From assembly GCA_020027655.1 (NCBI GenBank), contig JAHKKJ010000001.1, positions 1-25,902 on the forward strand: a DNA stretch of 25,902 nt, read 5' to 3'. The position numbers were made by a program, and so were the translations under genes. How positions within the stretch are numbered: the stretch's first letter is position 1; each line of letters opens with the position of its first letter. The DNA comes from Deltaproteobacteria bacterium. Lineage in GTDB: Bacteria > Desulfobacterota > Binatia > UBA9968. The notes beneath the pieces were generated by a model. That model was not told the origin of the DNA. It saw nothing but the letters and a program-made list of their open reading frames with translations, and searched no databases. This document shows positions 6,789-14,369 of this stretch, one piece after another.

Positions 6789-7262
6789 CTATGATTTTTT
6801 CGGAACGGCACCTAGCCTGGATCTTTCGATTTTCGAGAATGCTTGGTCTGCTGTCTTATCCCATTCTAAATTTCGCAGTTGCATCCGAACTCGATTGAGT
6901 AGGTCCTGGTTGTTGACGGGTTTGGCGACAAATTCGCTGACCCCGAGATCCATGGCCGCAGCCCGGGTTGTCATATCGTCTCTAGCCGTGAGCAAAATAA
7001 TGGGGGTCGCAGGAGCAATCTGTTTGAGCTTCTGGCAGACCTCCAGTCCATCCATCAAAGGCATCATCACATCTAAGATGATGAGGTCAACGGGCTGGCT
7101 CTTGACGATATCCAGACATTTGCTACCGCTCGACGCACCGATGACGGACAGCCCGTGTTTGGAAAACAACAGCAGAAGGAACTCCAAAACTCCCTTGTTG
7201 TCGTCGACGACTAGGATTGTAGGTTCCATTCCCTGCCGTGCTATCGGATTCGCTGCACTCAT
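6789..7262 (-). CDS. Stand-alone response regulator receiver protein (alternative start 7229)
   Basis: LVVDD, phospho-acceptor LDVMMP, LLTA and AKP are all intact; no output domain. Confidence 0.9.
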   Translation of the reverse strand: MSAANPIARQGMEPTILVVDDNKGVLEFLLLLFSKHGLSVIGASSGSKCLDIVKSQPVDLIILDVMMPLMDGLEVCQKLKQIAPATPIILLTARDDMTTRAAAMDLGVSEFVAKPVNNQDLLNRVRMQLRNLEWDKTADQAFSKIERSRLGAVPKKS

Positions 7263-7292
7263 TATTTTTCTCTAGTCAGTCATTCCGAACAT

Positions 7293-8366
7293 CTACCTGT
7301 TCTTGCCGGCATCGGAAGCCGCCAGGAACACCGATAAAGTCTGTTCCGGCTCTGAAGCTAGCGTGAAGGGTTCGCCATTGGATCTCGGTTTTCGTCGGAG
7401 TTTCGCGACCAGTGTCGTGCGTTTCAATCCTAGCATTCTGGCGGCCGCGCTTTTGTTACCGTTGCTAAGGCGCAATGCTTCTTCCATCAATCGACACTGA
7501 AGCTGCTCCGTCGCGTCGCGTAGATCGATCTGACCGCTCCCCAAGGTGGGTTGAGGACATTTCTTATCTGAAACATAAGAGCGAATGTTGGGTGGCAAGT
7601 CCTTGAGATCGGTGACGCCATTATCACTTAGGAGGACTAACCGTTCGATGAGGTTCTCCAATTCTCGGATATTCCCGGGCCAGTCGTACTCCCAAAGATA
7701 AATCATTGCCTCTCTGCTGATGCTCACTGAGACGCCATGCTTTCGGGTTGACCTATCGAGGAAATGATTCACGAGAAGGGGAATATCGGAACGCCGAGCC
7801 CGAAGCGGTGGCAGATGAAGCGGAATAACTTGAAGCCGAAAAAAAAGATCCTCACGGAAGGAACCTTTTTCCACTTGGTGAGCTAGGTCTTTGTTGGTCG
7901 AGGCAATGACTCGTACCTGAACCTCGACAGGATGATCCGTCCCGATGGGTCTTACTTTTCCGTCTTGTAGTACGCGCAGGAGTTTTGCTTGTAAAGGAAG
8001 CGGCAGCTCGCCGACCTCGTCGAGCAGAATCGTTCCATGGTTGGCGAGTTGGAAGAGCCCGGCACGGGAGGAGTGCGCGCCCGTAAAGGCGCCCCGGGCG
8101 TGGCCAAAGAGCTCGCTCTCGAGCAGGTTTTCCGGAATGGCGGCGCAATTTACTGGAACAAACGGGCGATCAGCCCTGAGGCTAACGTTGTGAATCGCCC
8201 GCGCCACAAGTTCCTTGCCAGTGCCGCTTTCACCTGTAATGAGCACGGTTACGTCAGTGGCTGCTACCCGTTGAATAATTTCATAAATCTTTTTGATCGA
8301 GGGGTGCTCGCCGAGCATGGCCGAAGAAGAGGACAGCATGGAAAATTTGGTGTCTATGACCTCCAT
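7293..8366 (-). CDS. Sigma54-dependent enhancer-binding protein (AAA+ and Fis-type HTH) lacking an N-terminal input domain
   Basis: [37 protein letters not shown] and [11 protein letters not shown]. In-frame TAA lies 4 codons upstream of the ATG. Confidence 0.9.
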
Positions 8367-8535
8367 AAGGCTTCGTTACAGAGCGGGATTTTGGCCATTT
8401 CGGGGATCAGGTGCGGGGGATAATTTGACTTTGCGAACACCTAAATTGTTCAAAATTGGTCTACTTAAGAAGCTAAGTTTAAGTTAAGCGTGGAGGTTTT
8501 GCAATCATGCTATGAGTTTTCCGAGACACTTGCCC

Positions 8536-8549
8536 GTCAATTTTCTAAC
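8536..8549 (+). promoter_or_regulatory. Putative enhancer (UAS) for the sigma54 promoter, FleQ-box-like
   Basis: The reverse strand reads GTTAGAAAATTGAC, an 11/14 match to the FleQ consensus GTCAATAAATTGAC (recalled). It lies ~120 bp upstream of the -24 element. Confidence 0.4.
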
Positions 8550-8668
8550 AGCTGACATCGGGGTGCTAATTTTTCGCCAGCGAAAATTTTTTCCCCCTAC
8601 CATAACCATTCGTAGGATCCTTAAATCTTTCCGTGGCTTAGATTAGATCGAGACGATCGAAAATGATG

Positions 8669-8684
8669 TGGCATCTGATTTGCT
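8669..8684 (+). promoter_or_regulatory. Sigma54 -24/-12 promoter
   Basis: TGGCAT-CTGAT-TTGCT versus consensus TGGCAC-N5-TTGCW, ~50 bp upstream of the 8736 gene. Confidence 0.8.
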
Positions 8685-8735
8685 CGAGACACCGTCCGTT
8701 CAAATAATTGTCATGACATCGGAAAAGGAGAGACC

Positions 8736-12794: not shown

Positions 12795-13304
12795 ATGATG
12801 GAAGTCATCCACAAAGGGCGTCCAGGTACGGAGCTCTCCCAGCTGATACACAACGGCAAGGCAGCGGGCCAAGCTGGCCGTGACGAGAGAAGCGAAGTTG
12901 GCCCAACCCTAGAATCAGCCAAGGTCAATATCTCCAAAAAGGCGCGGGAGCCACAAAGAATCGCCCAGCATCTGGCTCGTAAGGGCGATGAACTCCACGC
13001 GGAAAAAGTCCGACAGGTCAAGGAAATTATCGCCAAAGGTGAGTATGAGGTTGATCCCCGGGAGGTCGCTAAAAGTATCATTCGTACCGAGATCTCGCGG
13101 CACCTCGAAAAAAGTAAAGTTCGATCGATGATTATTGATCTGACAGAATTGTTAGCGCTCACAGAAGAAGAAATTGCGGCCGGGGAAAAAATGGCGGCGC
13201 AACGTGGAGGATCAAAAGAAGCCCGTCGCAACGTGGGAAGTCGTCGCGCTTTTCCAACAAATCGATGCAGAACCAAGCCTAGCCTCCTCGACTTTCTCCA
13301 GTAG
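12795..13304 (+). CDS. flgM: Anti-sigma28 factor FlgM with a C-terminal extension (read-through into an flgN-like remnant)
   Basis: SAKVNISKKARE...EKVRQVKEIIAKGEYEVDPREVAKSII; GAGGAG RBS; sigma28 promoter upstream. Confidence 0.85.
   Translation: MMEVIHKGRPGTELSQLIHNGKAAGQAGRDERSEVGPTLESAKVNISKKAREPQRIAQHLARKGDELHAEKVRQVKEIIAKGEYEVDPREVAKSIIRTEISRHLEKSKVRSMIIDLTELLALTEEEIAAGEKMAAQRGGSKEARRNVGSRRAFPTNRCRTKPSLLDFLQ
13128..13304 (+). pseudogene. Degenerate flgN-like remnant
   Basis: MIIDLTELLALTEEEIAAGEKM, then in another frame RNVEDQKKPVATWEVVALFQQID; syntenic position directly after flgM. Confidence 0.45.
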
Positions 13305-13313
13305 AAGGATTCA

Positions 13314-13571
13314 ATGTTGATATTGAGTCGCCGACCCGGCGAGAGTCTCACCATCGGCGACGATGTTGTAGTGACCGTGGTCGGTGTGAGCGGCAACCAG
13401 ATCCGGCTGGGCATTACCGCGCCGCGGGAAGTCCGGGTGCTGCGGGAGGAGGTCTCTAAGGCCATGCGGGAAGAAAACCAGGCCGCTGCCAATGCGCTTG
13501 ATTCCAATAGGAGGCCTGGAGATGCTGTTAGACAGCTGCGGGGACGAAAACAGAGAAAGTCCCGCGACTAA
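13314..13571 (+). CDS. csrA: Carbon storage regulator CsrA, flagellar-cluster type with a C-terminal extension
   Basis: [47 protein letters not shown]; AGAAGGA RBS. Confidence 0.95.
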
Positions 13572-13580
13572 TCATCCCAC

Positions 13581-13700
13581 GCCATCGACGTCGCCATCCA
13601 TCGCAACGTACAAAAGGTTATCGCGCTCAGCACAGACAAGGCCGCCAATCCGATCAATCTGTACGGAACGACCAAGCTCTGCTCCGACAAAGTTCTGGTT
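13581..13700 (+). pseudogene. pseB: Internal fragment of PseB/FlaA1-type UDP-GlcNAc 4,6-dehydratase
   Basis: [40 protein letters not shown] (family signature [17 protein letters not shown]); no start codon, both ends missing. Confidence 0.8.
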
Positions 13701-13720
13701 TTTCAAGAAGGACGCAGCGC

Positions 13721-13957
13721 TTCGTCAGTGAGATTGGCTTGGACAAAGAGATCTTCATTGAATCAGCGCCCAATGAGATGGTCATTTCCTTGAAGGATAC
13801 CGTGCCGTTCGATTCGGGAAAGGCGGACTTGCGACAGTAAGCCGTTCCAGTTCTCGAAAAAGTCGTGGCCACGGTTTTAGTCGCCCTGGGCTATCGGTTG
13901 GAAGTCAGCGGTCATACCGATAGCGTTCCGATCTCGACGTCGAGGTTCCCTTCAAAC
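13721..13957 (+). pseudogene. motB: Fragment of the flagellar motor protein MotB periplasmic (OmpA-like) domain with a premature stop
   Basis: ...[29 protein letters not shown]...RLEVSGHTDSVPISTSRFPSN; TAA at 13838-13840; TM segment and the WELS-onward part are absent. Confidence 0.8.
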
Positions 13958-14369
13958 TATCGCAGCGTCGATCAAAACCCAATCTCGACGAGTCCGGAGA
14001 ATCTTTCAGTTTTCGTTTTCCGGCATAGCCTCAATTGACAGCCAAAGCTCATATCGGATAGTCTCGGGCCGCCTATGAGCAGAGTTGCACATAGTTCACC
14101 TATCCAAGCATGCGACCAACCTACCGTTAATTTCGGTCCGCCGGATGCCGCAACTGATGCCTAGGCGCTTTCGAGCTTGGCTGTGGATTTGGGTATCGGT
14201 GAAGCGGTGGATGTGGTGAATCTAGGTCTGTGCAAAAATTCCTAAAACCATTTTTAGACGCAACCGCGGTTATTTGGTCCCCCCCGGGAATTAGACCGTC
14301 CAGCTTGAGATTTCTGCGAATTCGGGTAGAGGATAACTAGATTCGTTTTGTAAAAGGAGAGAAACGATA

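Follow-up and report, generated by a model that had tools for sequence, protein, structure and literature searches.

Why should the regulators of a flagellum stay intact in a genome from which the flagellum itself has gone? The question is raised by a locus at positions 6789-14236 of a 25,902-nucleotide stretch of Binatia DNA (the window), which is the entire contig C191 of a metagenome-assembled genome of 4.9 Mb (G000; 877 contigs, 93.6% complete). A sequence-only reading had described the locus as a sigma-54, sigma-28 and CsrA cascade that may have been retained for a non-flagellar regulon, and the genes, scraps and promoters that it named were all found in place by Pfam and NCBIfam profiles, blastx and inspection of the sequence. 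Based on the comparison with relatives presented here, the locus is the collapsed remnant of a flagellar supercluster of ~60 kb that is intact in flagellated relatives. We consider it probable that this erosion removes the regulators last, with selection keeping FliA and its sigma-54 drive for a job other than swimming, and with FlhG, FlgM and CsrA as dispensable passengers. These three would be lost in an order that differs between lineages, rather than forming a fixed repurposed cascade, and we infer that a non-flagellar target of FliA exists.

A collapsed flagellar supercluster

Genes were called with Pfam and NCBIfam profiles, bit scores being compared with curated cut-offs, and scraps of deleted genes were located by blastx of the window against the clusters of flagellated relatives and against G002, a sister species that is syntenic with the window over the whole contig. 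A third congener (G001) and four flagellated relatives (G008, G010, G016 and G024, each with FliA, FlhA and flagellin) completed the close comparison, and 123 genomes were covered in an order-wide survey. Pfam labelling of the flagellated relatives' clusters gives the ancestral order. At the head, two divergent sigma-54 activators (EBP-A and EBP-B) are followed by a kinase, an NtrC-type regulator, flgC, fliE-F-G-HI-K and flgD-E; then come a CBS protein, fliM, an HDOD-receiver gene, fliL-O-P-Q-R, flhB-A-F, flhG and fliA, then flgF-G-A-H-I-J, flgM, flgN, flgK-L, csrA and fliW, and finally an HDOD gene, pseB-pseC, flagellin and an OmpA-type protein. The gene order given by the sequence-only reading matches these clusters exactly.

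At least five deletions are needed to pass from this order to the state of G000. Structural, export, assembly, glycosylation and stator genes are gone, together with several regulators. The claim that only regulators had been spared holds in one direction: the intact survivors are all regulators (the two head activators with a receiver, flhG-fliA, flgM and csrA), but the FlrB/FlrC-like kinase and regulator, FlhF, FliW, two HDOD proteins and the CBS protein were lost. A rough combinatorial estimate, in which genes are treated as independent, gives ~1e-4 to 6e-4 for regulator-only survival by chance.

The absence of structural and export genes, also claimed before, extends to the genome. FlhA, flagellin, FliF, MCP and CheW have no match in G000, and neither do FlhB and FliPQR of the relatives. 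When the ~57 open reading frames (ORFs) of the 60-kb supercluster of G008 were compared with G000, ortholog-level matches were obtained for EBP-B, FlgM and CsrA only, the rest being scraps or weak paralogs; FlhG and FliA orthologs were matched in separate searches outside that set. Since no FlhA, FlhB or FliPQR was found, relief from FlgM by flagellar type III export does not apply and another route would be needed. At the exact end of contig C813 (7120-7744), a truncated HlyD-like membrane-fusion gene is in frame with a 44-residue internal piece of FlgI, 50% identical to residues 239-282 of G010 FlgI. This piece may be a second flagellar scar, or the rearrangement may continue in unassembled DNA.

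The center of the locus is the flhG-fliA unit. It lies behind a putative sigma-54 promoter, CGGCAC-N5-TTGCT (10455-10470, plus strand), formerly that of the fliL operon, which reads TGGCAC-N5-TTGCT in G002. About 100 nt upstream of it is a palindromic box, GTCA-N6-TGAC (10357-10370), a candidate activator-binding site of which this is the sole copy in the window. Promoter and box are conserved islands between G000 and G002, the box lying within 18 identical nucleotides while the surrounding non-coding DNA is 74% identical. Two scraps separate the promoter from flhG. The first, fliL' (10494-10648, plus strand), holds the N-terminal membrane helix and ~50 more codons, is frameshifted and was recognised by comparison with G024 and G002: the gene at this position in G024 is FliL (PF03748, 7.8e-22), residues 17-39 of this protein align with the scrap of G002 (E 6e-4 for a small search space), and the scrap is more eroded in G000 than in G002. 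The second, flhF' (10649-10696, plus strand), consists of ~16 codons from near the flhF 3' end; its short match to the FlhF C-terminus of G010 and G024 is weak alone (E 0.3-0.8), but the scrap can be recognised more clearly in G068 and G092, two genomes discussed below. Through a single deletion that runs from fliL to flhF, the old fliL promoter would now drive flhG-fliA.

FlhG, a FleN/MinD-type ATPase, is intact (10697-11620, plus strand; the ORF opens at GTG 10541, and ATG 10697 is the likely start). It matches ParA/CbiA/MinD families, with the MinD models below their cut-offs, and the libraries used hold no curated FlhG model. In flagellated relatives, the product encoded between flhF and fliA is 64-72% identical to FlhG of G000, in which the Walker A motif (KGGVGKT) and the C-terminal helix are conserved. 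Its position is thus orthologous, but its partner FlhF is reduced to the ~16-codon scrap. FliA (sigma-28), also intact (11617-12447, plus strand), scores 218.3 bits against the 189.6 cut-off of TIGR02479, with Sigma70_r2, r3 and r4 all matched, and is 63-74% identical to the product of the gene after flhG in the four flagellated relatives. Only 2 lineage-specific changes fall at the 120 positions that are invariant in these relatives, and the terminal branch of G000 in the FliA tree is not lengthened.

Where a single sigma-54 activator had been claimed at the head of the locus, there are two, plus a receiver. EBP-A (7293-8366, minus strand; PF00158, 2.9e-71; GAFTGA at residue 92) and EBP-B (8736-9872, plus strand; PF00158, 6.7e-72; GAFTGA at residue 97) are both sigma-54 activators without an input domain, as judged by PF00158 scores of 239-241 bits, the GAFTGA motif and an HTH_8 domain. 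Neither matches the receiver-like N-terminal domain of FleQ, the AAA+ domain starting at residue 18-22, and no equivalog model reaches its cut-off for either; the likeness to FleQ/FlrA is one of cluster-head position only. Judged by gene order, EBP-B occupies the position of a FleQ/FlrA-type master regulator. Its orthologs are 83% identical in G002 and 65-76% identical in the four flagellated relatives, and copies at ~55% identity occur in 9/11 genomes of another genus, g25. In G008, EBP-B heads the flagellar cluster, followed by the kinase, the NtrC-type regulator and flgC-fliE-fliF, and the EBP-A ortholog stands divergently beside it. A candidate sigma-54 promoter, TGGCAT-N5-TTGCT, lies upstream of EBP-B (8669-8684, plus strand), and a near-identical site precedes the ortholog in G076. 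Downstream of EBP-A is an orphan single-domain response-regulator receiver of 157 residues (6789-7262, minus strand; PF00072, 1.2e-30) with the canonical DD..D..T..K residues; the receiver-EBP-A pairing is also found in G076.

Sigma-28 factors of the FliA/WhiG family transcribe from TAAA-N15-GCCGATAA promoters. Putative promoters that match this pattern precede flgM and the scrap of the HDOD-receiver gene. The first, TAAAG-N14-GCCGATGA (12749-12775, plus strand), ends 19 nt upstream of flgM; the motif is also found upstream of flgM in G008, G010 and G076 and of the flagellin genes of relatives. The second (10103-10130, plus strand) is conserved in G002 and G008. The FlgM ORF (12795-13304, plus strand) scores 44.4 bits against 25 for PF04316 and 46.2 bits against 40.75 for TIGR03824. 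It comprises FlgM codons 1-105 and a tail which, compared with G010, G002 and G076, results from the loss of 1 nt in the A-run at 13108-13113, which carries the ORF on through ~48 codons of flgN', split between two frames, to the final ~9 codons of flgL'. A structure prediction lends weak support to a FliA-FlgM complex, which scored 0.60 (best control, 0.00), with an interface between the C-terminal helices of FlgM and regions 3-4 of FliA. The calibration mark was reached by 51/78 solved complexes and 2/108 mismatched pairs; scores of 0.60 or less comprise 5/78 solved complexes and all 4 passing mismatches, and at this level a prediction is more often wrong than right unless there is a strong prior.

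CsrA is intact 10 nt behind the flgM ORF (13314-13571, plus strand; NF002469, 86.8 bits against 73; TIGR00202, 78.9 bits against 70.1) and is the single copy found in the G000 genome. It is 61% identical to CsrA of G010 and of G008, which equals the likeness between those two. In flagellated relatives such as G010, fliW follows csrA; the G008 ORF at that position has no match in G000, and flagellin is likewise unmatched.

If these elements work as their counterparts do, a receiver-less sigma-54 activator would drive flhG-fliA from the former fliL promoter, and FliA would transcribe flgM from its sigma-28 promoter, and probably csrA behind it. FlgM would in turn sequester FliA. With no export gate found, proteolysis or dilution would have to clear FlgM, a route that has been argued for in L. 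oakridgensis and H. pylori (PMC5655016). By analogy with FleN acting on FleQ, FlhG may damp the activator.

Selection and recurrence

The alignment of G000 with G002 is unbroken from the 3' end of the HDOD-receiver gene through fliL', flhF', flhG and fliA. The two species share the fliL'-flhF'-flhG junction, and the deletion of the export-gate genes is therefore older than their split. Since that split, FliA, FlhG and the activators have been under purifying selection, in line with the sequence-only reading. The ratio of nonsynonymous to synonymous substitution rates (dN/dS) lies at 0.07-0.25: 0.07 for EBP-A, 0.10 for EBP-B, 0.17 for FliA (87% identity) and 0.25 for FlhG (no indels), while the receiver (74% identity) has 0.10. 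Upstream of flhG, 11 indel events fall within 521 non-coding nucleotides (74% identity), versus 0-1 in 1712 coding nucleotides, and third codon positions are 75-79% identical, about equal to the non-coding divergence. Nearby non-coding scraps are 74-83% identical between the two species, and the EBP-A/EBP-B intergenic region does not align.

The congeners have since parted ways. G000 has lost the HDOD-receiver gene and a two-partner-secretion cassette that G002 keeps; from G002, csrA has vanished entirely, as have the flgM promoter, the greater part of flgM and the pseB'/OmpA' scraps. The FlhG of G002 is damaged, its Walker A motif reading KRGMGKT (Gly-to-Arg) and an invariant Asp being changed to His. 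At positions invariant in flagellated relatives, FlhG carries 7 private changes in G002 and 2 in G000, and FliA 1-2 in either. In G001, none of these regulator genes and no synteny with the locus were found.

Independent soil metagenome contigs span the fliL'-flhG, fliA-flgM-flgN'-csrA and csrA-pseB'-OmpA' junctions at ~98% identity and with the same A-run length. Every listed indel falls in non-coding DNA or in scraps, and the FliA substitutions listed are 4 synonymous and 2 nonsynonymous; strain variants listed for the FlgM tail are 7 nonsynonymous and 1 synonymous. In three soil metatranscriptomes, short contigs (93-97% identity) lie over EBP-B, the flhG leader, fliA, flgM and csrA; one spans the flgN'-csrA scar, and there are almost none over 13.8-14.4 kb. 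We take these contigs as weak evidence of transcription.

In the 123 genomes of the order, FlhA is found in 17 and FliA above its cut-off in 44. Three genomes of another genus (G068, G076 and G092), which also includes flagellated members, have no FlhA or flagellin match, yet carry an intact fliA. The arrangement of sigma-54 promoter, fliL', flhF', flhG and fliA in G068 and G092 is as in G000, but the junction codons of fliL'/flhF' differ between G000/G002, G068 and G092. In G092 (99% complete, 20 contigs), FlhG is frameshifted and EBP-B is a scrap; FlgM was not found in G092 or G068. In G076, fliA lies directly after EBP-B, flhG is gone from the locus, and flgM is kept with flgN'/flgL' scraps. 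Given the differing junctions and the flagellated members within the same genus, these states argue for convergence, and the losses are likely independent. In the FliA tree, aflagellate genomes do not have systematically longer terminal branches.

Genus g25 goes further. FlhA is absent from all 28 genomes searched, and FliA at ~52% identity is present in 26 of them (24 pass the family cut-off and 2 fall just short of it), while FlhG and FlgM were not found in the 11 genomes sampled. The orphan fliA-like gene stands directly 3' of, and co-oriented with, a gene for a GAF domain and PEP-utilising enzyme I (ptsP-like; e.g. G028:C1:841232-844552), a neighborhood that hints at a link to the nitrogen-type phosphotransferase system. 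In an otherwise flagellated relative (G094:C16:100383-102336), FlhA is in two pieces in different frames (profile positions 1-73 and 69-656), either an early inactivating frameshift or an assembly error.

Rival readings and known systems

The retention of FliA and its sigma-54 drive for a non-swimming job has several observations to contend with. Genome scans for TAAA-N15-GCCGAT and TAAAG-N14/15-GCCGAW returned counts equal to those for other spacings and for a reversed-pattern control, in G000 and in relatives, and no sigma-28 site of G002 outside the locus has an orthologous site in G000. The dN/dS values of FlhG and FliA are 2-3 times those of flanking genes, which indicates some relaxation. 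The segment 10736-12447 (flhG-fliA) has a synonymous divergence (dS) of 0.37-0.42, against 0.9-1.2 in flanking genes; it may be younger than the species split, for instance through recombination, or rates may be heterogeneous, and a younger segment would shorten the interval of demonstrated selection. Non-functional scraps have persisted over the same interval, so that persistence alone is weak proof of selection. The RNA contigs are sparse, of low depth and only 93-97% identical, and could stem from DNA carry-over. About 69/89 genomes of the family have no FliA above its cut-off; retention is thus not obligatory. With its unresolved backbone, the FliA tree could not be used to count independent losses and allows a single origin, and the differing junctions could have arisen by later nibbling of one ancestral deletion. 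All genomes compared are, moreover, metagenome-assembled. We nevertheless regard selection on FliA and its promoter as the probable cause of the pattern.

The regulon proposed by the sequence-only reading did not materialise: no non-flagellar set of sigma-28 or enhancer-box targets was found in the scans, and the only convincing sigma-28 sites in G000 are the two inside the locus. The intergenic candidates at C234:6026, C470:2756, C550:3909 and C135:9609 were at background level. Outside the window, a box combined with a sigma-54 promoter occurs once, on C517 before a lytic-transglycosylase-like gene; with ~0.16 expected, this is not significant. An excess of sigma-28-like sites in G037 (17 versus 5 in the control) is partly due to a gene family that is present in many copies and whose upstream sequence is conserved; many of the sites are inside ORFs. 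In this family, TAAAGTTCC...GCCGA sites lie upstream of paralogs that share an '..E(I/V)DHPHD.LFR.VFSD' N-terminus (G037:C1, e.g. 928013, 1602893 and 4641454). The paralogs may resemble the Rpn/YhgA-type nuclease-transposase families.

A bolder extension can be offered as a tentative possibility, namely that sigma-54-driven sigma-28 in Binatia is a flagellum-independent module which has been selected repeatedly, as the three or four separately scarred collapses and the g25 orphan fliA beside ptsP might suggest. If true, the regulon would perhaps be reached via promoters that have drifted from the flagellar consensus, or via HDOD-receiver and CsrA outputs, and flagellar loss would proceed by deletions filtered for continued expression of fliA.

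Rather unlikely, in our view, is the sequence-only proposal in its full form, in which the whole circuit (sigma-54 activators with FlhG, FliA with FlgM, and CsrA) has been repurposed as a stable unit for a non-flagellar regulon. G000 itself speaks for it: every element is intact, promoters are near consensus, flgM and csrA each survive between two large deletions with the flgM promoter kept, the divergence of CsrA and FlgM does not exceed that seen among flagellated relatives, and metatranscriptome contigs reach both genes; G076 keeps flgM as well. The relatives contradict it. In the sister species, csrA and most of flgM are gone and the P-loop of FlhG is damaged, G092 and G068 are without FlgM, and csrA, present in G000 and missing from G002 (both genomes checked), is absent at the G068, G076 and G092 loci examined, each lineage keeping a different subset. 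In G000 itself, FlgM ends in a frameshifted junk tail, and the scans described above yielded neither a sigma-28 nor a box-plus-sigma-54 regulon.

Less probable still is a purely neutral decay caught midway, in which the survivors are intact for lack of time and the regulator bias is owed to chance, small gene size or cluster position. The stepwise loss among congeners (G002 with fewer genes, G001 with none), the recognisable scraps of deleted genes, the elevated dN/dS of FlhG and FliA relative to flanking genes and the fact that most aflagellate members of the family keep nothing would all be expected of such decay. It is difficult to reconcile, however, with dN/dS values of 0.17-0.25, far under 1, with the 0-1 coding indels against 11 events in adjacent non-coding DNA, with differing junctions that each preserve promoter-flhG-fliA or EBP-B-fliA, with an entire aflagellate genus (g25) that retains fliA, and with the low chance, roughly estimated, of regulator-only survival. 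A second, complete flagellar set served by these regulators, whether in another part of the genome or on unbinned contigs, is very improbable and largely refuted: a genome only 93.6% complete in 877 contigs and a FlgI fragment at the very end of C813 leave some room for it, but neither FlhA, flagellin and FliF nor any Che protein was found in G000, where the ~57 G008 cluster ORFs are almost without a match, G002 is equally empty of flagellar genes, relatives carry all these genes and the regulators together in a single cluster, the FlgI fragment comprises 44 internal residues fused in frame to a truncated HlyD-like gene, and G092, nearly complete in few contigs, is in the same state.

The survival of FliA and its companions after loss of the flagellum has a clear precedent. 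Non-flagellated Legionella retain 'mainly genes with regulator functions' (PMC5655016). In L. oakridgensis, FliA and FlgM are kept and both are functional, flgM being sigma-28 dependent; L. londiniensis and L. israelensis keep FleQ and FleN in addition, and L. longbeachae keeps FliA, FleN and FleR/FleS (PMC5655016). Without a basal body, these species cannot export FlgM, which is presumed to be degraded instead (PMC5655016). In G000, likewise, an activator in the FleQ position, FlhG (= FleN), FliA and FlgM survive, and no structural or export genes were found. Unlike Legionella, G000 belongs to another phylum (Binatia) and is free-living in soil and sediment, its activators are without the FleQ N-terminal domain, csrA is also kept, and deletion scars and promoter fusions are still readable. 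Moreover, FliA and FlgM are functional in L. oakridgensis, whereas the G000 case is known from sequence, with no FliA target found outside the locus. Regulators outlasting a lost flagellum are thus already documented, and the locus, which had been put forward as a candidate for an undescribed system, is a further example and not a new system type. It is valuable because the scars can still be read, the congeners form a stepwise series (G000, then G002, then G001) and the promoter fusions are convergent; together, these show in what sequence a large molecular machine is taken apart. With this small set surviving in Legionella too, and with several Binatia lineages reaching similar end states by different deletions, a general rule is suggested, by which FliA gains functions outside the flagellum or has had them from the start.

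Chlamydial sigma-28 is a factor of the FliA/WhiG family with a non-flagellar job. WhiG of Streptomyces, with RsiG, is a repurposed sigma-28 (PMC12871210). The FliA of G000 is comparable to both, being a factor of this family kept in an organism without flagella. WhiG and chlamydial sigma-28 differ from it in having known non-flagellar regulons, and the anti-sigma factor of WhiG is a different one, controlled by c-di-GMP; in G000, FlgM still has that place, and no promoters can be recognised other than leftovers of the flagellar cluster.

The hierarchy of Pseudomonas and Vibrio has four tiers, with FleQ/FlrA, FleSR/FlrBC and FliA/FlgM, and with FleN/FlhG as anti-activator (PMC13063649). The cluster of flagellated Binatia resembles it, with a sigma-54 activator at the head, a kinase with an NtrC-type regulator, and flhF-flhG-fliA further on. 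Unlike in Pseudomonas and Vibrio, the middle tier and FlhF have been deleted in G000, where flhG-fliA would stand directly on a sigma-54 promoter, and the head activators carry neither a FleQ nor a receiver domain.

In Bacillus and Campylobacter, FliW, CsrA and flagellin form a partner switch. Flagellated relatives of G000 show the gene order that is usual for this module, csrA lying downstream of flgK-flgL and directly upstream of fliW. In G000, by contrast, FliW and flagellin are gone, which leaves CsrA without antagonist or classical target.

In a survey across the tree of life, FliA matches were obtained in 41% of non-motile genomes (PMC12199754), and a survey of Binatota genomes reported flagellar genes in most orders of the phylum (PMC8262859). 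The presence of fliA, flgM, flhG or csrA in a metagenome-assembled genome is not evidence of motility. Aflagellate genomes with FliA also offer a clean background for non-flagellar sigma-28 targets.

Other scraps and neighbors

The deletions left further traces on both sides of the regulators. In G002 (476 residues) and in flagellated G008 (471 residues), the HDOD-receiver gene is intact, and Pfam identifies both an HDOD and a receiver domain; in G000 it is collapsed (10078-10257, plus strand), as blastx matches to both ends of the G002 protein and two mapped internal deletions indicate. Between EBP-B and this gene, G002 carries a two-partner-secretion cassette (C21, L021 1713-10112) encoding an ShlB-type transporter, a 770-residue two-partner-secretion-domain protein and a 1406-residue DUF5649 repeat protein. 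From this cassette, G000 retains only the last 19 codons of the 1406-residue gene (10009-10065, minus strand), identified by blastx, Pfam labelling of the G002 genes and a map of the junction.

Behind csrA lie a pseB' scrap, 50 codons of a Polysacc_synt_2 dehydratase (13572-13721, plus strand; 70% identical to G008 residues 154-203), and 80 codons of an OmpA/MotB-type peptidoglycan-binding protein (13721-13960, plus strand; 44% identical to G008 residues 420-499). The G008 parent of the latter has 560 residues, with the OmpA domain at residues 449-546, and is encoded ~15 kb further along the cluster. Both ends of a deleted formamidase-like gene follow (14075-14236, plus strand), recognised by blastx, the Pfam family FmdA_AmdA and the junction map. 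This formamidase/acetamidase-like gene, which is not flagellar, is intact in G002 (357 residues), whereas G000 keeps its first 25 and last ~30 codons; deletional decay thus reaches beyond the flagellar genes, and this gene marks the edge of the decayed zone.

An Rfam scan of the window gave no match. About 100 nt of non-coding DNA 3' of EBP-B (9897-9998) are 86% identical to G001:C4:204132-204232, yet there is no synteny with G001 here; the conserved stretch 9880-10070 gave no Rfam match and folds no better than shuffled sequences (z = -0.13). Further upstream, a ferredoxin-domain gene (3760-4821, minus strand) is only 64% identical to its G002 counterpart, the two being aligned by tblastn across 6 stops and 20 gap positions, while its neighbors reach 79-89% identity. 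The G002 gene may have become a pseudogene; alternatively, the ORF may be mis-called in G000.

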